The notes beneath the pieces are model-generated. The model was given only the letters and a program-made list of their open reading frames with translations. It was not told where the DNA came from and did not search any database. A DNA stretch of 63,413 nucleotides from Girardia tigrina (Eukaryota): assembly GCA_001938485.1 (NCBI GenBank), contig MQRK01234264.1, forward strand, positions 1-63,413, in the 5' to 3' direction. Numbering within the stretch: the stretch's first letter is position 1; every line of letters starts with the position of its first letter. The translations under genes were made by a program, and so were the position numbers. Shown one piece after another: positions 2,801 through 61,675 of the stretch.

Positions 2801-3406
2801 GCTGATGAGGAAAGAAGGTGATATTCTGGTAATTTATCATAATGTAAAAAATAAGGGTTTCAAATTGATCGAACCTCAAAATACGGCAATAAAACGTAAC
2901 TTTTTATACGTGTTGCGTTCCCCTCTCTCATCTTGTGGATTCTCAGTCCCCAGTCACTTTCTGAGATAAACGACCGTTCTTAATTTACACATTTTGATTC
3001 TGTATTTACACTCTCAATGTATATGGCGAACGGAGGCATCTCCTCCATGCTTATCAATAAGTTTTATGCATTTCTATTTGTCCAGATTCTCTGTAAATTG
3101 AGAAAAACTGATAATTATACAAATTTATATTTTAAAGTAACGTTCGATGCTTACTCGTTAAAACAATAGAATAAATTAATTGTAAATATAGTATAGTATT
3201 ATTAAAGTAATAATTAACTGCCCTTAAATTGTATTCTTATTATTCATGTAATATTTTTATATATTTTTAAATTATAAATTAAAAGAAATTAATTTCTAAA
3301 ATAGTAAAATAATAGAAAATATTAAATATTGCATCAAATATATATTAAGAATACAATTTACGGACAATTAAATTTTACTTTAATAACAATCAAATATTGT
3401 AAACTA

Positions 3407-5040
3407 CAGTCAAATTCGTGTATTAGCAATTCGTCTAATAGCAAAATTCACCTAATAGCAAGTTGTTACAAAGCACTACACAAATGAGTTTGCGGTTGAC
3501 CCTAACCCCTTACTTAGTGTGGTATTAATTGTCATCACAACATGACTGCTAAACGTCCACGCAATGACCTCCAACTACAACAAAAGCATGACATGGTGAA
3601 ACTTTTGCAAAGTGGATGGCAGCAAAAGCAAGTGGCAGACAAATTTGATGTGAATGAATCGACTGTCTCAAGATTGAATAAGCAGCAGGTGGAAATTGTG
3701 GCACACTTCGAGCAGGGAAAGTTGAACATGACAGTTATGTCTAACAAGCCATTTGGCCTAGAGAAGGTTGACACAGATCTTCTGGAGTGGTTAAGAACTG
3801 TGGCTGCCGGAAAACTGGGAATATCTGGAGCTGTACTCAAAGAGAAGGCACAAGATTTCGCGAGAAAACTGAAATTTCAGGACACTAAAGTCAAGAAGAT
3901 CGACATGAATTGGATTAATCGCTTCAAAACACGCCATTCCATTGTTGTAAAAAACTTTATGGCGAAGCAGCGGCTGTTGGTAAAGGAAATGTGGTAGACT
4001 GGCGAATTAATCTTCCTTCAGCAATGTTGAGTCAATGGCCCTTGGTGACATTTTCAACGTTGATAAGATGGGATTATTCTGGTGTTTCTTACCAGATAGC
4101 ACTCATGCCTTCAAAGGCGCAACATGCAGTAGAGGAAAGCGGTCAAAGGAGCGGAGAATAGTCCTATATGGTGCAAGCACATTAGGAGAAAAATTACCGT
4201 TACTTGTGATTGGAAAGTCCAAAATGCCATGCTGCTTCCTTAGAGAACATGTCCCAGTAATGTTTGAAGCAAACAGCCGTGTCTGGTTGACTTCAGAAAT
4301 TTTATTTCAGTATGTTCGACGACTTGAACAACGCATGGCTACAAACAAGAGTAAGATTGCATTGATCCTCGATAATTGTCCTGCTCATCCGACAATCTAA
4401 GGGTGAATGAACATTACACTGTTCTTTGTACCTCCAGATACCACGTCGCATACGCAGCCCATGGATGCAAGGGTTATTCGCAACATAAACTACCACTACA
4501 AATTGGTGTTGGTTCGACGGATGACTGCAGCAATCGACAACCAGCAACCCTTCCAGATCAATCTTCTGCAATCAATACACATCCTCAAGGACTTCTTGGA
4601 AAGTTGATGGAGAGGACCATAAAAAACTGTTTCCACCACGATGGATTCAATGCCATTGGTGAAGAACCTGCAGCTGTGGAGCCTGGGAAGAACAACCCAC
4701 AGACAACATCTTTGAGAGGATGGCAGCTCATTTTGAATTTGTGGATTACAGCAAGTATGTCAATGTGGATGCTGACCTTATCCCCTGGGACTCACCATCA
4801 GAGAAGGCAATTTTGACACTGGCAGGTGGAAGGGAAGGGCAGCCATGCAGCCAAGGGAAGAAATGCCACCATCTCGTATAGAAGCTCATTTTGCCTTGTA
4901 AACTCTCCAAAAATTTCTGGAAGCACAGGATAATGGCTTACCTGCTTTGCAAAGTCTGCGTACAGTGAAAGAATTGTTAACTCAACTTTTTTTACAAAGA
5001 AGTGATAAACTACCATTCCAGATTTTTTAAACAGTAAAAT
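3407..5040 (+). mobile_element. Tigger/pogo DNA transposon remnant (CENP-B HTH + DDE_1), frameshifted, right TIR not found
   Basis: TA|CAGTCAAATTCG start at 3407. ORF pieces: HTH_psq/CENP-B (3542-3997, WINRFKTRH), IFNVDKMGLF, ALILDNCPAH, PPDTTSHTQPMD. Confidence 0.9.
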
Positions 5041-5113
5041 AAAATATATGATTGAATCCCGTATGAATGTTGGATTATTAAATGGTGTCTGTATTATTAC
5101 AATTACATATTTT

Positions 5114-5194
5114 GGGATCTGTGTTACCCTCCTCCCCGTGGTGGATCCTGGGAAACTAGATGGGTTAAAGTCCGTCTCTAGGCGAATGTGGTAA
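5114..5194 (+). ncRNA. HDV-like self-cleaving ribozyme at the 5' end of a LINE
   Basis: P1 GGGAUCU/GGAUCCU with G1-U wobble, L3 UCCCCGU, P1.1 CC/GG, J1.1/4 GAAA, P4 CUA-GAUGGG/UCCGUC-UC-UAG, J4/2 GCGAA with catalytic C5183, P2 UUACC/GGUAA. Confidence 0.8.
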
Positions 5195-5684
5195 AGAAAC
5201 TTACAGGGCTAGCAATCTTGTCTGTGGATATGAAGAACGCTTTCAAAACCCAAACAAGGGGTCTGGAAGGACCCGAAGTCAGAGAATTTTTATCAGAAGT
5301 TGCAGGAGGAGATCGAGAAGGAGAAGAAATTCGCTAGAGAAAAGAAAATGGAACTACTAATTGGAGGAGACTTTAATTGTAGGTTGAAGAGCATCGAAGA
5401 GTGCAAATCGGTTGTAGGTATCTACGCACCTGGAGTTAAGACGTCGGAGAACGGAGAGCTGCTTACCGAGATGGCGATATCATGTGGACTGCGTGTTGAA
5501 AACACCTTTTATAGGAAACAACTTAGCCAGAGAACGAGCTGGACTCATCCTGCAACATCCAGGAGGTCATTACTTGATCTCTTTCTTATTGAAAGAAATC
5601 GAGCTAATAGGTACACGGATATCCGAAGCTACCCAGGCTTTGACTGTGGTTCCAACCACGATCTGGTAGTTATAACTGCCAGAA
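5114..5684 (+). mobile_element. RTE-like non-LTR retrotransposon 5' fragment (5' UTR plus partial APE endonuclease)
   Basis: ORF 5300-5710 carries LIGGDFN, ENGELL, NTFY, SWTHP, LDLFL and GSNHDLV, the APE motifs. No RT follows. Confidence 0.85.
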
Positions 5685-5989
5685 TTTACAGTTTTGAAGA
5701 AAAATTTTGACACATCATGAGAGGATAGTCACTGAGGCATTATTAATAAAGCATTTAAAACCATGCTTAAATATTCAAAGTGAATTATCCAATCCTATTA
5801 AAATTTTTTAATATTAATTAAAAAAAGATTAATTGCGTAATGGTCAATGTGCCATATAAATGACTTGTAATTTGAAATTTACTTCTCAACTGATGATGCC
5901 GTAATGGCGAAACATGTTTTGAGAAATAAAAAACTTTTTAAATGGCGTTTGTTATTCATTTTCTTTACAAATAAATTGCCATTAAATCT

Positions 5990-5990
<1 letters not shown>
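5685..5990 (+). mobile_element. Penelope-like element 3' end (GIY-YIG tail plus pLTR)
   Basis: ERIVTEALLIKHLKPCLNIQSELSNPIKIF* closely matches the GIY-YIG tail at 13164-13288. Followed by a hammerhead and an AATAAA signal. Confidence 0.85.
5883..5925 (+). ncRNA. Minimal type I hammerhead ribozyme (Penelope-associated)
   Basis: Stem I UUCUCAA/UUGAGAA, core CUGAUGA, stem II GCC/GGC, GAAA, palindromic stem III ACAUGU, GUU cleavage triplet (cut after 5918). Confidence 0.85.

Positions 5991-5993
<3 letters not shown>

Positions 5994-6027
<34 letters not shown>
5994..6027. repeat. (TA)n microsatellite
   Basis: Direct reading. Confidence 0.95.
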
Positions 6028-6030
<3 letters not shown>

Positions 6031-6445
6031 ATATAGAAAGTAAGCTAATAAAAAGAATGGAACAAATTTAGGTCAACTAAATAAAGGTACCCTTTTGAAT
6101 AAACGTACTATGTATGGGCTGCTACAACTAATAAGCGCACCGGTGCGCGTATTTCAATAAAATACAGTATGTCAAACATAATAAGATGTAACAATTAATT
6201 TTTATTACAAAAACAAAATTTACAAAAAGAAAATCTATTCATTTTTTAAACATCATCCAAATGTCACTGAAAATTTATTACAAATAAAAGATTGAATGAG
6301 ACAAAAAATAAATGATTCGAATAACTGGTAGTGTAGAAAAACAACCCGTTTACTATTTATAAAAACATGGTCGAAATAGATTAATAAGAATTGATAAATA
6401 TCAATTTCAATTTCCAAACACTGAACGGCCATAAATAAATATAAA

Positions 6446-12799: not shown

Positions 12800-13530
12800 C
12801 AATGTCACACAATCTACCAACCCTACTTATTATGAGCAGTTACTCTCGGTACCAAAGCACCAGAATCAACAAATTGCAGAAATATATATCCAGTTCAGTA
12901 AGATTGTTAAAATTTACTTCTATGCCGATTGTCTGACAGTGTTGGTTGTAAATGCAAGTTTAAACCTGTCAAAATTATTTAAAATTATCAATTAAATTAT
13001 CAATTCAAATGTCACAAGTGCGAAGCCTTGTACATTGGAGAGACAAGTCGTCATCTCCGCACTAGAATTGCTGAACATACTCAATCGAGTAGAAATAGTT
13101 CGATATTGAGCCANNNNNNNNNNNNNNNNNNNNNNNNNNNNNNNNNNNNNNNNNNNNNNNNNNAAGTGATTTTAAATAATTTTGACACAAATTATGAAAG
13201 GATTATTGCCGAAGCATTGTTAATAAAGCATCATAAACCATGCTTAAACGTGCAAGGTGATTCATCTAATCATATTAAAGTTATTTAAAATATCATTAAA
13301 AATATTTTTCTTTTTTTTAAGAAAAGAAAAAAAAAGAATGTTTTTGAGACGTATGATGTAATAGTTTTTCAACTATATAAATAGCAATTAATCACTTTAT
13401 TTCATTGCACTAAAGATGCCGAAATGGTGAAACGCGTTTGTATTGGGAATAAATTTAATATTAAAAAATGGCTTTTCTTTTCATTATATAGATTCCATCT
13501 CAATGAAAACAACTACAGTCGGCTACTTGA
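12800..13530 (+). mobile_element. Penelope-like element 3' fragment (GIY-YIG endonuclease plus pLTR)
   Basis: YQFKCHKCEALYIGETSRHLRTRIAEH...EALLIKHHKPCLNVQ, followed by a hammerhead-like fold. Confidence 0.9.
13403..13445 (+). ncRNA. Hammerhead ribozyme with mutated core (CUAAAGA)
   Basis: Stem I CAUUGCA/UGUAUUG, stem II GCC/GGU, GAAA, palindromic ACGCGU, GUU. The conserved G5 is A. Confidence 0.75.
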
Positions 13531-20359: not shown

Positions 20360-21591
20360 GGATCTTGTTAAAAATATGCCCCCACGGGCATATTTTTTAG
20401 TTGTGTAATTTTAGGGGCGTACTTTTTAGTTGTGTAATTATATCTCATTATAAATACATGTTATTTATTTTAATGTTCATAAATATTTTTTGGATCACGT
20501 CACCTAGTACGTATGAAACAATCATAAGAAGACTAATGAATGCTGATTTACAAGACACGATAGCATTTTTTAAAACAAAGGGGATTTTGAAATCATCNNN
20601 NNNNNNNNNNNNNNNNNNNNNNNNNNNNNNNNNNNNNNNNNNNNNNNNNNNNNNNNNNNNNNNNNNNNNNNNNNNNNNNNNNNNNNNNNNNNNNNNNNNN
20701 NNNNNNNNNNNNNNNNNNAGAACTAATTCTTTTTTGGGCATTTCCAGAATCAGTCTTCAAACATGGATAGATTTGCTCTACAGATGGAGCAATGAGGAAT
20801 CAATTGTGACGATTCAACGGTCTTTGACTGTATCAACGCCCACCCTTATTAAAATATTCAAAACCATAAGAAAATGCACTTTTAAATATTTTGAAGCTAA
20901 TCCTGTAAGACTGGGGGGCGAAAATGTAATCTGTCAAATCGATGAAAGTCTTTTTTGCCACAAACAAAAATATCATCGTGACAGAGTTGCTAACCATCAG
21001 GTATGGGTATTTGGTATCGTAGATACATCTTTTATTCCGGCGAGAGGCATAATGCGAGTGGTTTCAAACAGATGTGCGGCTATTTTGAGACCCATTATCT
21101 GTGAAGTAATATTGCCGGGTACAACTATTCACAGTGATGAATGGAGAGCATATTCCAATTTAAATACTCTAGGATATTATCATGGTACAGTTAATCATTC
21201 GATTAATTTTGTAGATCCTAGAACCGGGATTCACACACAAAATGTTGAATCTTATTGGAATAAAAACAAAACACGGTGCAAGAAAATGAAAGGAGTCAAA
21301 AAAGAATTTTTGCAGGATTACCTTAATGAGTTTATGTGGCGAGACAACATTTCTGGAGATTCTTTTGAAAAATTGATGAATTTATTGAAAAATTATTTTA
21401 ATGATTAATAAATTTCATAATTTTGTATTGTGTTTTTATTGTATTATTACACGGGGCATATTATTTAGTTGTGTAATTTTAAGGACATATTTTTTAGTTG
21501 TGTAATTTTAGGGGCGTACTTTTTAGTTGTGTAATTTTAGGGGCGTACTTTTCAGTTGTGTAATTTTAGGGGCGTACTTTTAACATGATCC
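20360..21591 (+). mobile_element. Merlin (IS1016/ISXO2-like) DNA transposon, complete
   Basis: TIRs GGATCTTGTTAAAAATATGCCCC / GGGGCGTACTTTTAACATGATCC, perfect 8-bp TSD GAATCATT (20352-20359, 21592-21599), subterminal 29-bp tandem repeats. Confidence 0.95.
20401..21408 (+). CDS. Merlin/IS1595-family DDE transposase (start uncertain, N-gap inside)
   Basis: CQIDESLF, WVFGIVD, IHSDEWRAY, HGTVNHS, HTQNVESYW, YLNEFMWR. Confidence 0.9.
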   Translation: MCNFRGVLFSCVIISHYKYMLFILMFINIFWITSPSTYETIIRRLMNADLQDTIAFFKTKGILKSXXXXXXXXXXXXXXXXXXXXXXXXXXXXXXXXXXXXXXXXXRTNSFLGISRISLQTWIDLLYRWSNEESIVTIQRSLTVSTPTLIKIFKTIRKCTFKYFEANPVRLGGENVICQIDESLFCHKQKYHRDRVANHQVWVFGIVDTSFIPARGIMRVVSNRCAAILRPIICEVILPGTTIHSDEWRAYSNLNTLGYYHGTVNHSINFVDPRTGIHTQNVESYWNKNKTRCKKMKGVKKEFLQDYLNEFMWRDNISGDSFEKLMNLLKNYFND

Positions 21592-28329: not shown

Positions 28330-28830
28330 ATTGCCTGGAAAATGTTGGATTCTATTCATTTCCTCTTTAATATTATGATAAGACTATAACTTCTGATTGC
28401 TAACTGGGATTCTTTCATTTTTTTGCATTTCACATCGTATGCACAGGCAAATACCTCGATTACAACTATTACTGGTGATAAATGTACTACCGAGATAACA
28501 AAACTACTTTATCTATTCTATGATGTTCTCTTCACACTTAACTCACGGTATTCGCATCTTCAAATCATTGATGAGATACACAACTTTCGTCTCGGTGGTG
28601 CTGAATTTTAATCTGAATTCGGAAAATGCGTTTCTATGTATATCTAGATTTCTACCGTTACAATCAATATCAGTATCAATAATGCATAGGTCTTCCGCAT
28701 ATGCTAGCATATTGACTTGTATTTTAGAATCATTGTTAATTTATGAGTGCTACCTTACTTATGAAACCTTTCCGTACAGTCGTATGAACAGTATGAATGA
28801 TGATATCAATGTATTTACAATATAACCTGA
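28330..28830 (-). mobile_element. Degenerate non-LTR (RTE/CR1-like) reverse transcriptase fragment
   Basis: VNMLAYAEDLCII (YADD motif), LKFSTTETKVV and FCYLGS on the minus strand. Confidence 0.75.
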
Positions 28831-33699: not shown

Positions 33700-36600
33700 G
33701 AAAAACAAGAACTTTTTTGCTGAAGTATGAATATATCAGTACATATCAGGAAAACATGAACTTTTTTTAAAATTCGGAAAACATATTAACTTTTTCTTCA
33801 AAATTGGACAATATTAACTTTTTTGACAAAAGAATTAATAAAAAAATAACAAAAATTAAAAAACAATTTTTATAGACCACATTTATTTAATAACTTTCAT
33901 TGTCATTTATAAGCAGCAGTATTTCTTCTTATCTTCGGTCTGCCTCTTCCTCTTCTTTGGATTGCAGCTTGAATATTCGATCTTACCAAATTAGCTGCAG
34001 TCAAAAGGAGTACGTTATTAGAATATGAACTACAATACTTTTGAGTAGTATACATATCAGGAACCAAATTAATAACATTTAAACTATTATGAGAAATGAC
34101 AGCACATAAATGAATGTAAGGAATCTTAGAATTGATCCATTCGAAGAATTCACAAGTATCTTCGGACAAGTTGTTATTTGTTGTCAACCAAATAAATCGC
34201 ATCAGTAGAAGCTATTATAGTCAGATGTGTAGTTTTTAGATTAATTTTATTCAAGATTTTTAAACAGTTATTGACCACAGAAGTTGAAAATCTCAGAAAA
34301 AGTTGTCATTACATAATTATTTATTGAAATTATTAAATTGCAAATATCTTTATCAATGTAACAACGAATCACAAATCTATTAAAATTTATTATTCACTAA
34401 CAAATACTTTTAAAATAGATATTATTTAAACAAATAATTATCTATATTTTTTCATGTTAAATATTTCATTTAAGAAATAAATTTAACATGTAACACTCCC
34501 CCCAGATTCTTCATCACAAGAATCTATATCTACCACATACTCGTTCAAATATTTCGGTTTTCGTATTTCTCTTTGGGGTCTGTTGCTGATTCCCGATTCA
34601 CTTTGCTTAACACTCGGAGCTGATTCATTGTTATTTTCCAACATGTAATCCGAGTAAGAGTTTCGCGGCAGGTCTGGTTGTNTTGGTCGAATATCTGCTA
34701 TATGCCGTGGACCGCAAAACCATCACAATTTATTAAGTACTTTCTTTGATCCAATTTTCTAACGACAACGCCTCTTGTCCATTGCCTTGTGCATGGCATA
34801 TTATTTTCAGGCTTTACCTTGACTAACGGTTGCTCTACGAAGTCTGTCTTTAACTTATTGTAAACCGGTTCCTTTTCAATTCTTTCGATTATCTCCAAAC
34901 CGACTGGAATGTACTTGTAAAGTGCTGAACTAGGGGTCTCCTTTCCGTCGGATGGTGTATTGTTATACCACCATTTAGATATAATCGGTAGATAAATCGG
35001 CGCTTCATCCTTCCACTTCCATTTAACCGTCCAATTATCCTTAAATCCAATCTCATAATTGTGTTTGTTCAGGCTAACTCTTGGCACAACAGCCGTGACA
35101 CAACTCATATTGTCACCAGCCTTCTTTTGTCCTTCTCCTACACACACACCAAATTCGATAACACCCTTATTCATTTTCACACCCCCAAGTTCACTTATAA
35201 CATCCATACCAATTAAAATTCCCAAATCATATGGTAAGTATTTCATGACAGAACATTCTACTTTCATAGTTCTAGTGTCTATAGTCAATTCCACATCACT
35301 AATCCCCACACATATATCATCGCCATTAGCCAAAACAATTCTTTGCTCATTTGACTGGAACGAGTTTCCCTTGATCAACCATTTCAAAACAACAGTTTTT
35401 GAGCAACCTGAATCNNNNNNNNNNNNNNNNNNNNNNNNNNNNNNNNNNNNNNNNNNNNNNNNNNNNNNNNNNNNNNNNNNNNNNNNNNNNNNNNNNNNNN
35501 NNNNNNNNNNNNNNNNNNNNNNNNNNNNNAATATTTTGCAATATGTCCAACTTGCTTACATTTATAGCAAATTATTTGTCCATTAGATTGCCGCTGAGAA
35601 TTTTCATTACGGTTTACCCTTGTTTGTACCAGATTTCCGTCATGTGGCAAACGGGGTTTTGTAAAGGAACTCCTTCTATCGCCGCTGACCTCACCTCGTT
35701 CTTTAGAAACGATCTTTCCATCACCAACGTTTTGTACCGCTGACATTGAACTTTGTGTGACGCATTTTTNNNNNNNNNNNNNNNNNNNNNNNNNNNNNNN
35801 NNNNNNNNNNNNNNNNNNNNNNNNNNNNNNNNNNNNNNNNNNNNNNNNNNNNNNNNNNNNNNNNNNNNNNNNNNNNNNNNNNNNNNNNNNNNNNNNNNNN
35901 NNNNNNNNNNNNNNNNNNNNNNNNNNNNNNNNNNNNNNNNNNNNNNNNNNNNNNNNNNNNNNNNNNNNNNNNNNNNNNNNNNNNNNNNNNNNNNNNNNNN
36001 NNNNNNNNNNNNNNNNNNNNNNNNNNNNNNNNNNNNNNNNNNNNNNNNNNNNNNNNNNNNNNNNNNNNNNNNNNNNNNNNNNNNNNNNNNNNNNNNNNNN
36101 NNNNNNNNNNNNNNNNNNNNNNNNNNNNNNNNNNNNNNNNNNNNNNNNNNNNNNNNNNNNNNNNNNNNNNNNNNNNNNNNNNNNNNNNNNNNTCACAAAT
36201 CTATTAAAATTTATTATTCACTAACAAATACTTTTAAAATAGATATTATTTAAACAAATAATTATCTATATTTTTTCATGTTAAATATTTCATTTAAGAA
36301 ATAAATTTAACGTGTAACAATCAACATATCTTTTCAGGGCAGAATTGAGTGATTCGGCAGTATTATTCGTATTTATACAAAATCTAGGAACTGGAAATTT
36401 GGAATTGGCCCAGAAAACATGGTTTATGGAGCTCAATCTACGGCAAAATGTTTCATTAATTGTCCTTAAATTTGACATTATCTGGTTAAATTCTGCACCT
36501 GAAAATGTATTCACAACTCTCCAAAAATGATTCATAGTATTCGCATCCCTAAATTTGAATTTTATATTTTTAGTAATGTGCCTGATACAATATGAGCTTG

Positions 36601-36970
36601 AGTAGTTTGGAGCCATTGATTGCAAAGCATTTAGAATACTCTTGTCTCTGTCTGAAAATATTATGACATCAAGTGAATTCAAGCTTTCTTGTGCGTTAAT
36701 TAAGCTAAGAAACCAAGACCAACTGCTAGAATTTTCACTTTCAACTACCGTAGCTGCAATTAAAACGAGTTGATCGAGGCCATCCTGAGAAACTGCAATT
36801 AAAAGAGTTCCCTTGGATGGTCCAGATAAAAATGTTTCATCAATATATAAAAGCTTTCTCGATTTATTAAAGAACTCGTTTGAAGCTTTCTACATTATGA
36901 AGAATCTTTCAAAATGTCCTGTTTCAGAATATTTCACATGAGCAAAATAACATTTTTTTGTTATATTATC
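33700..36970 (-). mobile_element. MuDR-type MULE transposase remnant (DDE + SWIM), split by an LTR element
   Basis: YIDETFLSGPSKGTLLIAVSQDG...ESENSSSWSWFL, FSDRDKSI, CIRHI, TNNTAESLN. Continues after 34356 to the SWIM-like TCEFFEW..IPYIHLCAV and RRGRGRPK. Confidence 0.85.
34357..36319 (-). mobile_element. Short non-autonomous Gypsy-type LTR element (gag knuckle, protease, integrase tail; no RT/RNase H seen)
   Basis: 139-bp LTRs (34357-34495; 36181-36319, partly N), TG..CA ends, 5-bp TSD ATCAA, PPT GGGGGGAG. Protein motifs CYKCKQVGHIAKY, (D)SGCSKT, LIGMDV, WYNNTP. Confidence 0.9.
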
Positions 36971-36974
36971 TTTC

Positions 36975-39900
36975 AAAGATAAAAGAAAAGAGTAAGAATT
37001 TTCGATAAAAGGTACAGAAAACAATGGAGTTTTATGTTGTCAAAGAAATAGGTCCGGAAATGATTGCTGGTATAGATTTTTTGGATAAATTTGGAATAAA
37101 ACTGAAGAAAGAAGCATCAAATATCGATAGGATATTGGCAATTAGAGATAGCCTTTCTGATGAAGATATATTAAAAAAAATAAGAGAATTGTACATTACA
37201 AGTGAAAATGAGCTAATGGAACTTTTAACAAAGTACAGATCAATATTCATGGCTGATAAATGGGATATTAGAAAAACTTCATTAACCAAACACAAGGTAG
37301 AAACTCATGGAGAACCAGTACTGGTAAAACCGTATAGACAACCGAAACATTTTGAAGAGAAACTAGATGATATTATAAAACACTTTGAAGAAAATGATAT
37401 TATCGAAAAGTGTAGTTCTCCTTGGAACTTTCCTTTGGTATGTGTTTGGAAAAAAGAAAAGCAAGATATTCGAGTATGTGTAGATTTTCGTCAGTTAAAT
37501 AAAATAACCGTTCGACCAGCGTTTCCAATGCCAAATGTAGACGATATGTTGGCTAGACTAAATGGGGCAAAATACAATCGATTTGGGAAACGCTTACCAT
37601 CAAGTAGAATTAGAAGATGAATCAAAGATTAAGACGGCATTCTCAACAAAGTACGGTCAATACTGTTTCAAGAGAATGCCTTTTGGAATTGCTGTGGCCC
37701 CAGCAACTTTTCAGGAGCTAATGGTGAAAGTTTTGGGAGATTTGAATTGGAAAGAAGCAGTCATATAATTGGATGATATTTTGATTTTCGCAAAAGATAA
37801 GAAAGAACATCTTCAAAGAGTAAATAACATATTTAAGAAGATTAAACAATCAGGTTTGGGAATAAATCTGAAGAAATGTCAATTTTTATTAGAAAAGACT
37901 AAATTCTTAGGATATATCATAAGTAAAGATGGTATTGAAACAGAAAAATAAAAGATTGATACGATAAGCAAGTTTCAAAGCCCATCATGCATTAAACATT
38001 TACGGAGCTTTTTGGGCTTGACAAATTACTACAGAAAATTTATAAAGGATTACGCAAAATATGCAAAAGTATTGGAAGGTTTATGTGGTAAAAATAAGGA
38101 TAAGAAACTGATTTGAACTAATGAATGTGATGAAGCTTTTCAAAAAGATTAAAACTCCAATTTTGTCATATCCTGATTTTGCCAAAGACTTCATACTTGA
38201 TACAGATGAAAGTTTTGATAAAATAGGGGCGGTGTTATCACAGAAAGACAAATGTGGAAGAGAAAAGGTGATTGCGTTTGGATCACATAAAATGAATAAA
38301 CATGAACTAGGCTATTGCATCACAAGGAAAGAACTACTTGCGATTTATTATTTCACACAGTATTTTAAACATTTCTTGTACGGAAAAAGATTTTTGTTGC
38401 AAACAGATCATAAAGCTATTACGTTTATGATGACCACAAAGAACCCTATCACACCACAGTTCCAAACATGGATAAATTTTCTGAGTAGTCTTGATATGAA
38501 AATGGAATATCGAAAAGGTGAAAAACATTCAAATGCTGATGCAATGTCAAGAAATTCGTGCTAACTATGCAATCAGTGTCAAACAATGCATGAAGAGGCA
38601 AGAAAGGAAAGATTAAAACAAGAATAGTGGCATTAAGTGAAGAATCAGATGGTTTTAAATGGCAGAAGAATAATAATGAAATAAAACAAATAATCGAGGA
38701 CATAAGTACAGGTAGAATAAGAAAATGGGCATTAAAGAATGATATCGTCATAAATCAAGAAAGTAAATACTGGATACCAAAGGCAGAACGAGCTAATTTT
38801 ATTGAAGAAATGCACAAATTGTTGTGTCATGCAGGTTGTAAAAAGGTCCATAACTACCTTCAAGATGATTTCAACATGGAAAATATGAGAGCATTTATAA
38901 AAGAAATCGTTCAAAGTTGCATAAATTGTCAGAAAAGGAAGACACTAACAACTAAAACGAAATAAAAACATATAAAGCAATTAGCGGATGAACCTTTCTA
39001 GAAAATATACATTGATTTATGTGGACCATTCAAAAGAAATATAAATGGATGTCAATATATATTTGCAATAATTGACAAGTTTAGTAGATATATTAGCCTG
39101 AATGCAGCAGCTAGTCAAGATGAAAAAAACAGTTAGAAAATTGTTATTGGACAGATGAATATGGAAATTCGGACCACAAAAAGAAATCCACGTAGACAGA
39201 GTAAAAACATTTGAAACAAGGACATGGCGAAAAAATTTAAAGTTGGGATATTCTATTCGAGTCCATATCATCATAACACAAATGGAATCGTGGAAAGACA
39301 GTTTCGCACGATCAGAGATGCTTTGAATATTAGAATGAAGGATGGAGATCATAAAGATTGGACAGATGTCTTATCAGAAGTCGAGTTTATGTTAAATAGT
39401 ACTGTACAAGCTAGGACAGGCATGTCACCGGCCGAGATAGTATTTGGAAGTAAACTGAGACATTGGTGGAAAAACAATTACGAAGATAACAAAAATTTGA
39501 AAGTAGGTGAACAAAAACAGAGACAAGAAGAATTTTTGAAGTCGGAGACAAAGTATTAATTAAGAAGGAAAATGTCTCAAAAGAAGATGACCGTTACATG
39601 GGTCCCGCAACAGTGGTGAAAAGAAATCATGAGAGAAGTTACGAGTTACAGCTTGAAGATGGAAGAAATTTTATTAGAAATGTTGAATGTCTAAAGTCAT
39701 TTAAATCGAGGGGGATGTGAGGAATATTTTGAAAGTTTGATGTTTTGTGTTTGAATGTGTATGTTGATTTGGAAATGTGTCTCTCCTACCAAGATGGATG
39801 ATTAATATTTGAATTCTTATTATCTAAAAATATGTAATGTTTAAATTTATTTTTAATTTCAAATAATTTTACAATTTTAAATAAGTTTATTAATTTTTAC

Positions 39901-59844: not shown

Positions 59845-59892
59845 TTATTTATTTAATTTCGACGGTTTAACCGTCATCATCAGAACAAATAA
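59845..59892 (-). ncRNA. Hammerhead ribozyme-like fold with truncated stem III
   Basis: UUAUUUGUU-CUGAUGA-U-GACGG-UUAAA-CCGUC-GAAA-UUA-AAUAAAUAA. Confidence 0.7.
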
Positions 59893-60184: not shown

Positions 60185-61675
60185 TACCCCGATTCAATTT
60201 TTTTGCAATTCACAAAATATCTAGTTTCTCAACAATCTATATATAATGTTATATATCATGCGATAGGGAATTTAAAACTGCATATTAAATATTCAACAAA
60301 TCTTTGTTTTAACGTATTACTTTAATTGTCTTTCCAATTTTGCATTTTTGAAAGTTGTAAATCGATTCAAAATTTTTGCATTAGTAATAAAAGTAAGCTG
60401 TTGTTTTTAATTTTAAAACTATATTAGTAATTTCACTTTTTACAAATCTTTAGATGACTTTATCATCTGAATTACGAAATTTAATTTATGAAAAATTAAG
60501 GGAGAACATGACCAAAGTCGACATTGCTAAGGCATATAATGTAAGTTTAAGGACCGTATATGGCATTCAAAGGCAAGGAGTAGAACCCAAACCTTCTGTT
60601 AAACGTTCGAAGAACGCTAGGAAATCAAAAGAAATTGTTAGAAGGGCTGTTAATGCATTCAAAATGAAAAATGAGCGCACATCTTGCACTAAAATAGCTA
60701 ATAAAATTATTACACCTTTCTCTAAAATTACTGTGAGACGAAACTTAATCTCACTAGGTTATAAATATGTTCCTAGTGTATGTTCCATAATTTTAAGTGA
60801 TGCTCAAAAAAAAACAGCGCGTGAAAATGGTTAGAAGCTACATAACGCAGCGCATTGATNTTCATAAAGTAGTATTTACTGATGAATCTCGTTTTTCTTT
60901 GGACGGTAATGATAATTATCATACCTGGTCAAAAAACTCACGACCTATTGTCAATAGGAGACCTTACAAAGGAGGATCCATAATGGTATGGGGTGCTATG
61001 ACTTTTACAGGTCAATTACTACTGCGTATAATCGAAGGAAACTTAAACAGCGAGAAATATTGTGATCTTCTCAGAGATGATATTTTCCCTGTCTTAAAAT
61101 CATCAATGGAGTCATTTATATTTCNNNNNNNNNNNNNNNNNNNNNNNNNNNNNNNNNNNNNNNNNNNNNNNNNNNNNNNNNNNNNNNNNNNNNNNNNNNN
61201 NNNNNNNNNNNNNNNNNNNNNNNNNNNNNNNNNNNNNNNNNNNNNNNNNNNNNNNNNNNNNNNNNNNNNNNNNNNNNNNNNNNNNAGTCTCTTTGGTCCA
61301 AAATCGAAAGTGAGGGAGAAAAGTTGACCACAAACGAACCAGATCTTTTTCAAAGGTTATATGCAAGATTTTACGAAAATATGTGTGATATATTGTGCTC
61401 AAATGGTGAACTTATAAAATAAGTGTATTTTATAATAATAAATGTCATTTATTATTAAGTTGAGTGCCTTGAAGTATAGTGCAAAAATAATGAACCGTTT
61501 TTAATGACCCAATTTTATAATAAAGATATTTCAAAGAAAAATATGTAAGTAAAGAAAAGGGTAAATATAACGTCTAATAGACATTTAAATTAGCTATTGA
61601 ATGACATATAACATTTCATATATAGCGTGATGCAATTAGATAATTTATCAATTGCAAAAAAATTGAATCGGGGTA
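60185..61675 (+). mobile_element. Tc1 element with IR/DR-like ends; transposase 60454-~61415 frameshifted at an A-run
   Basis: TA|TACCCCGATTCAATTTTTTTGCAATT ... AATTGCAAAAAAATTGAATCGGGGTA|TA. Inner repeats at ~60361 and ~61480. VFTDESRF, GGSIMVWG, NSEKY. Confidence 0.93.

Follow-up and report, generated by a model that had tools for sequence, protein, structure and literature searches.

The window, that is the whole 63,413-nt stretch of DNA that was analysed, is AT-rich (mostly 23–33% GC) and full of transposon debris. Its forward strand carries an HDV-like nested double-pseudoknot fold at the start of a short composite of retroelement pieces, and the features at and next to the fold are as follows.

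3406..4990 (right end approximate), + strand: Tigger/pogo-type DNA transposon fossil, frameshifted and not part of the LINE (CENP-B_N, HTH_Tnp_Tc5 and DDE_1 matches)
5114..5196, + strand: HDV-like nested double-pseudoknot fold and 5' edge of a repeat (pairing check, Rfam, descriptor and run depth)
5197..5281, + strand: remainder of the retained leader (loose ends at 5238/5239 and at 5281; peak in depth over 5248–5276)
5281..5683, + strand: middle of the APE endonuclease region (P0299 residues 114–248), without its start and without RT
5682..5993 (right end approximate), + strand: Penelope-like 3' end, comprising a GIY-YIG-type ORF end and a terminal-repeat region
5883..5925, + strand: minimal type-I hammerhead, its core read against the traits given in an excerpt of PMC4209133 (folding z -3.34)
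5994..6035, no strand: (TA)21 microsatellite that closes the composite on the right

The Tigger fossil has a left terminal repeat at 3406 and no right terminal repeat was found in the window; a 72% inverted repeat (3199–3386) lies directly before it. Further debris includes an IS1595/Merlin-type transposase at 20386–21581 (E 2.5e-23), whose right end has tandem repeats of 29 bp similar to 20386–20442 on the left, and, within 36290–39559 and 60454–61327, a MULE transposase piece, RNase H and integrase pieces of an LTR retrotransposon and a DDE_3 transposase piece.

The fold was checked pair by pair over 5114–5194, and every HDV element was present where the original prediction had placed it. 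P1 (5114–5120/5143–5149) forms 7/7 pairs, with wobbles at G5114·U5149, the G1-U wobble that had been proposed, and at U5120·G5143; it starts at the predicted cut site, and its length of 7 bp is within the range of 6–7 bp for the HDV-like class. P2 (5124–5128/5190–5194) forms 5/5 pairs and so reaches the class minimum of 5 bp. P3 (5130–5132/5140–5142) forms 2/3 pairs owing to a U5130·U5142 mismatch, the U-U that had been noticed at the base of this helix, and C5129 is left over between P2 and P3, where it may pair with G5188 if U5189 bulges out; in the HDV-like class a 3-bp P3 stacks directly on P2. L3 comprises the 7 nt at 5133–5139, two of which form the P1.1 pseudoknot (C5134-G5151 and C5135-G5150), and is followed in the nested core by J1.1/4 (5152–5155) and by P4 (5156–5181), a helix of 9 bp with five outer and four inner pairs and a 2-nt bulge. 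C5183 lies in J4/2 and is aligned to the J4/2 C of the Rfam model, a position from which a catalytic role is predicted; cleavage is predicted 5' of G5114. None of the 40 variants listed (of 129 between run contigs and the window) lies within 5114–5194. Among the structural features of HDV-like ribozymes that can be tested here, all are present with the exception of a clean P3.

When the 63,413-nt window was searched with 4,227 Rfam families, the only matches with E≤1 were two on 5114–5194, to RF00094 HDV_ribozyme (33.9 bits, E 0.4; gathering cut-off 50) and to RF02682 HDV-F-prausnitzii (26.6 bits, E 0.81; gathering cut-off 44). Both span the full models with the core aligned. The covariance-model check suggested at the outset thus returned full-length HDV matches at the site, with both scores below gathering, and the fold is not a curated member of either family. 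An HDV descriptor, which had also been suggested and was composed post hoc with the site already known, gave a single match in the window, at the 5114 site, versus one match in 6,073 doublet-shuffled windows. Nested folding stability was ordinary (z 0.75 and 1.37), which is unremarkable because pseudoknots lie outside the folding model.

Contig depth over the window was obtained from four runs (X1, X3, X4 and X10) of the 24 listed. For X1 the depth in bins 5074–5102, 5103–5131 and 5132–5160 was 653, 145,397 and 417,866, a rise of about 640-fold from approximately 650 over 5016–5102 to approximately 415,000 over 5132–5189, where summed contig depth is not equivalent to copy number and the edge is resolved to one 29-nt bin. 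The corresponding values were 1.8, 117 and 653 for X3, 10, 103 and 322 for X4, and 0, 36 and 178 for X10, so that the step falls in the bin containing G5114 in 4/4 runs; the alignment of one X3 contig stops at 5115. The step in all four runs indicates that the fold heads a high-copy repeat, and the proposal that it marks the 5' end of an element agrees with a repeat edge in bin 5103–5131.

The same contigs identify a base change next to P2. At 5195 the window has A, whereas in X1 C makes up 296,846 of a total depth of 300,785, and in X3, X4 and X10 it makes up all depth. The family C pairs with G5123, and P2 in the LINE family therefore extends to 5122–5196, with 6 bp and a wobble, leaving the window copy one pair short; the suspected erosion is confirmed by this lost pair. 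The P2 duplex has a predicted energy of -4.7 kcal/mol in the window copy versus -8.3 with the family base, and a competing helix, in which the upstream flank pairs with J4/2, one of -5.4 kcal/mol. The family form (C5195) and the window copy offer a one-base contrast for the effect of P2 length on cleavage. Contigs of X4 and X10 over 5147–5190 contain a related HDV-like ribozyme in which the spacer from P3 to P1.1 is one base shorter, with indels in P4 and other downstream sequence, which on sequence grounds likely represents a sister family.

Downstream of the leader, a frame at 5234–5710 matches an endonuclease domain. Tracing of homologues led to three ORFs of 1,188 aa (P0290, P0295 and P0299) with APE, RT and three C-terminal C2H2 fingers, to residues 114–248 of which window 5282–5686 is 94–95% identical (95% for P0299). 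In an Asp-His motif whose Asp is nearly invariant, the window copy reads Asn-His. Run contigs have loose ends on the upstream side of 5281 and on the downstream side of 5683 that, when translated by hand, give exactly the flanking residues of P0295/P0299, which shows that the window has just the middle piece of the ORF; about 113 codons and part of the leader are absent at 5281, and no continuation of P0299 after 5686 was found in the window. A decayed short RT fragment at 28420–28740 (minus strand), 34% identical to P0299 residues 697–800, belongs to another LINE family.

The contigs that encode P0290, P0295 and P0299 are 3,889–3,925 nt in length, with both non-coding ends together amounting to 322–358 nt, and a single ORF with APE and RT between short non-coding ends is the layout of the RTE type. 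RNase H after RT, which characterizes Ingi/L1Tc, was absent, there being no RNase H family among the 13 Pfam matches of P0299 at E≤1. One APE match of the family is named craniofacial development protein 2, a name that we take to be linked to RTE, and the RT motifs of the family presumably resemble those of RTE. A DUF6451 match was dropped as a basis for clade assignment, P0299 matching it at just E 0.22, and no literature on DUF6451 was found. In a quick tree of 53 of 54 rows, which did not include labelled RTE references, the family was placed on a distinct branch with good support; this comprises 29 rows, and 1–4 C2H2 patterns occur in 28 of them. The label 'RTE-like' is therefore a fair one by domain layout and nearest relatives, as judged from sequence, yet it applies to a C2H2-finger group of its own, for which membership of the RTE clade is putative. 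The original prediction of an RTE-like LINE is upheld as regards a single-ORF APE-RT family with a fold-bearing relative (see below), and has to be narrowed to this group.

The window copy does not preserve an intact LINE start but consists of leader (5114–5281), mid-APE (5281–5683) and a Penelope-like 3' end. What had been described as the 5' end of a LINE is thus correct for the repeat edge, while the element is truncated at 5281 and its LINE sequence ends at 5683 against the Penelope-like end. Sequence from 5682 is 78% identical to 13175–13302, which lies inside a GIY-YIG frame (E 6.7e-6); 5701–5790 alone gave no Pfam match. Stem I of the hammerhead is formed by 5883–5889/5919–5925 (register read by hand) around a core of 5890–5896 and 5909–5912, with a bulged U5897, stem II at 5898–5900/5906–5908 and a palindromic stem III at 5913–5916. 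Its folding z is -3.34, with 0/200 shuffles equally stable, and no Rfam hammerhead match at E≤1 was present in the window. Cleavage is predicted after 5918, and predicted to need a partner copy. The traits of minimal Penelope hammerheads are all present, namely conserved core, bulged base following the core, G-C closing pair of stem II and palindromic stem III (PMC4209133, excerpt), and together with the GIY-YIG similarity they point to a Penelope identity for 5682–5993. The hammerhead at 5883–5925 is a single copy behind a LINE fragment and does not stand in a tandem Penelope array. Elsewhere in the window, 12983–13500 (plus strand) is a second Penelope-like 3' end, with the GIY-YIG frame and a broken-core hammerhead near 13410–13440, and at 59883–59857 (minus strand) there is a third core of hammerhead type, in which one base is bulged and stem II has 6 bp, without a clean stem III or a cut triplet.

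The two joints of the composite show overlaps of 1 nt and 2 nt, the latter at the LINE/Penelope joint (5682/5683). Loose ends occur on both sides of the 5281 and 5683 joints, depth dips at 5277–5305, and among the 32 contig pieces listed (of 2,945) none bridges 5281 and none bridges 5683. Loose ends to the left and right of 5682/5683, and no listed piece that spans it, indicate a one-off composite. No target-site duplication of 7–20 nt was found between 5108–5115 and 5680–6400; the copy shows neither the target-site duplication nor the LINE 3' tail of an intact retro-insertion, and it is probably no longer mobile.

A full-length relative of the LINE (L057) was identified on a 3.7-kb contig, NZ_JBOFKN010000043.1, of a bacterial MAG, where a eukaryotic-type LINE likely reflects host contamination. 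It is distant from the window family (28% identity in the best segment) and was the only clear locus of the C2H2 group among 80 fetched, with one more borderline. At 93–171 it carries an intact HDV-like fold of the C1 type that matches RF01787 drz-agam-1 with 26.7 bits (gathering 37), in an Rfam search that covered 13 of the 80 loci, and that was the only descriptor match in 726 kb. Its P1, P2, P3 and P1.1 form 7/7, 5/5, 3/3 and 2/2 pairs, the second P1.1 pair being A-U. Compared with the window fold, 6/7 P1 pairs and 1/2 P1.1 pairs are changed with pairing kept, in what is a comparison of two sequences from distant relatives. The fold lies 260 nt upstream of the APE start motif of this element, with no in-frame ATG between the two. 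Of 24 LINE loci that include the APE start (17 of them with at least 200 nt upstream), this relative alone had the fold; the others are nearer to other RTE-type rows. The expectation that the site reports a ribozyme-bearing LINE family is supported by a relative of the same group with an intact fold before its ORF, and the window family and this relative together suggest, at the level of sequence, that the whole C2H2-finger, RTE-related group uses compact 80-nt ribozymes. At one of 56 loci found by pattern (L028, 1735–1817, minus strand) an unrelated HDV-like fold lies approximately 95 nt downstream of a tRNA-Leu gene and resembles theta ribozymes (label after the listing of PMC10879173). Both HDV descriptors missed it, and they therefore give false negatives.

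The window itself does not join the leader to an ORF start, other copies running on beyond 5281 with sequence that is missing here, and a separate origin could then be proposed for the leader, as a short non-autonomous element or as the 5' part of a sister LINE family, with template switching fusing it to the APE piece as with the Penelope-like piece. This is in keeping with a copy that is already a three-part composite and with the lack of a bridge over 5281 among the contig pieces listed. It is also in keeping with the sequence of 5239–5281, which is common to several subfamilies and has a depth peak of about twice its neighbours. A GC-rich hairpin may form within this sequence at 5260–5275, although it is not the predicted lowest-energy fold. 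Subfamily sequences differ before 5239 and diverge again approximately 12 nt after 5281, and because this segment is shared the leader may come from a sister family; the related ribozyme of X4 and X10 likewise precedes other downstream sequence. Against such a fusion, X1 depth is alike over leader (332k–474k at 5132–5247) and APE (233k–587k at 5306–5682), and a second X1 contig has a leader-APE joint at other breakpoints, 5158 to 5360, although this is a single contig with a 21-nt side and is weak. One X3 contig carries parts of both leader and APE, on opposite strands. The 322–358 nt of non-coding ends in the full-length contigs leave space for a leader like the 260 nt of the relative, which itself has such a fold before its own ORF. 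A separate origin for the leader is on balance unlikely, and continuity from leader to ORF in intact copies is the interpretation that we infer from these data.

Pattern and protein scans of viral contigs, prokaryote genomes, JGI metagenomes and plasmids did not find intact DNA of the family; the plasmid scan returned one distant RT, and none of 56 pattern loci matched the window (blastn) or P0001 (tblastn). An overlap of the ribozyme with APE coding sequence, in frame 5101, which by eye is APE-like over P4 and beyond, was rejected because the true APE goes on upstream of 5281 with other sequence, the loose ends there corresponding to P0299. An RT-like motif in the same frame near 5210–5245 was put down to chance, since the true APE upstream of 5281 differs.

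The presence of two ribozyme folds raises a further reading, in which 5114–5918 is a working two-ribozyme unit whose RNA of about 800 nt could be circularised by a ligase and spread by the RT of a Penelope element or of a LINE. The two folds share a strand, follow each other in the order required and have their catalytic cores. HDV cleavage leaves a 5'-OH and hammerhead cleavage a 2',3'-cyclic phosphate, and the unit would have ligatable ends. The composite nevertheless seems unamplified, given that 0/32 of the pieces listed bridge either joint, that depth dips at 5277–5305 and that loose ends flank both joints; in addition P2 is eroded, the nearest second hammerhead copy lies at a distance of 7.5 kb and its core is broken, and for single minimal Penelope hammerheads no cleavage was detectable in vitro (PMC4209133, excerpt). 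This reading is very improbable; if true, 5114–5918 would be a hybrid of LINE and Penelope that seeds a circular RNA of the retrozyme-like kind. Even less credible is a chance fit of GC-rich leader or coding sequence to the HDV pattern, for which Rfam scores below gathering, ordinary folding z-scores, a post hoc descriptor and the 30-bit chance matches to be expected from scanning very many windows could be cited, but which is countered by just one match in 6,073 shuffled windows, by a fold that begins at the repeat 5' edge and gains P2 length from the family base at 5195, and by the independent intact fold in the equivalent place of the relative.

Taken together, 5114–5196 holds an HDV-like fold where a high-copy repeat begins, and this fold is likely the self-cleaving head of a family of single-ORF APE-RT-C2H2 (RTE-like) LINEs. 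Precedents for the mechanism are found in R2, L1Tc and RTE elements (excerpts of PMC6765202, PMC5786205, PMC4035085, PMC3774820 and PMC4908430). By analogy with these, intact elements would be transcribed along with host sequence from host promoters; cleavage by the fold would take place 5' of G5114, with C5183 as the putative catalytic cytosine, and would free the RNA of the element from read-through host transcripts. This RNA would have G1 as its precise 5' end, so that new insertions would start at the ribozyme. Being uncapped, it may rely on the fold for cap-independent initiation of translation. In the window copy, a deletion or template jump at 5281 would have removed the remaining leader and about 113 codons, and the joints may have arisen either by DNA deletion or by template jumps in reverse transcription.

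This copy itself probably cleaves weakly or not at all, a prediction based on its short P2, the P3 mismatch and the competing flank helix. Very low activity with a short P2 and a mismatch, and effects of flanking sequence, are described in an excerpt of PMC4035085. A P3 mismatch is found in a studied R2 ribozyme, that of the jewel wasp (PMC3774820, excerpt), so some residual activity of the window copy is possible. Cleavage and a translation role in the family as a whole are predicted by analogy with R2, L1Tc and RTE.

R2 elements use a restriction-like endonuclease, and the LINE in the window differs from them in its APE endonuclease. Their ribozymes have the same fold, with P1 of 6–7 bp, P2 of at least 5 bp and the jewel wasp mismatch noted above, and they insert in 28S rDNA (PMC3774820, excerpt), whereas the window element adjoins a Tigger-type fossil. 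L1TcRz/Pr77 of trypanosomatid L1Tc/ingi elements is likewise a compact HDV-like fold of about 80 nt that heads an APE-type LINE, and among these LINEs and the short elements derived from them there are eroded copies, with a short P2 or with mismatches, and activity that depends on the flanks (PMC4035085, excerpt). Ribozymes of that type start with C1, as does that of the distant relative, whereas the window fold starts with a G1·U pair; L1Tc encodes RNase H (PMC6765202, excerpt), for which the ORF of the window family has no Pfam match, and in contrast to trypanosomatids the window host is an AT-rich, transposon-rich eukaryote. There is also a likeness in architecture to the 5' ribozymes of RTE, in which an APE-RT element with one ORF begins with a nested double pseudoknot (excerpts of PMC5786205 and PMC6765202). 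RTE is also among the clades in which a 5' ribozyme is accompanied by internally deleted derivatives that keep the 5' end (PMC5786205, excerpt). The window family differs in its three C-terminal C2H2 fingers, which are called rare in RTE (PMC9115989, excerpt), and in its own tree branch apart from other RTE-type rows, and the window copy differs in having a Penelope-like 3' end instead of the missing LINE 3' end.

The known picture is left unchanged by these data, as RTE, ingi and R2 elements that begin with a ribozyme, together with deleted derivatives of them, are already described (excerpts of PMC5786205 and PMC4035085). What the locus would add, if the favoured reading is right, is a high-copy LINE family, found in runs from several organisms and habitats, to the retrotransposons headed by HDV-like ribozymes.
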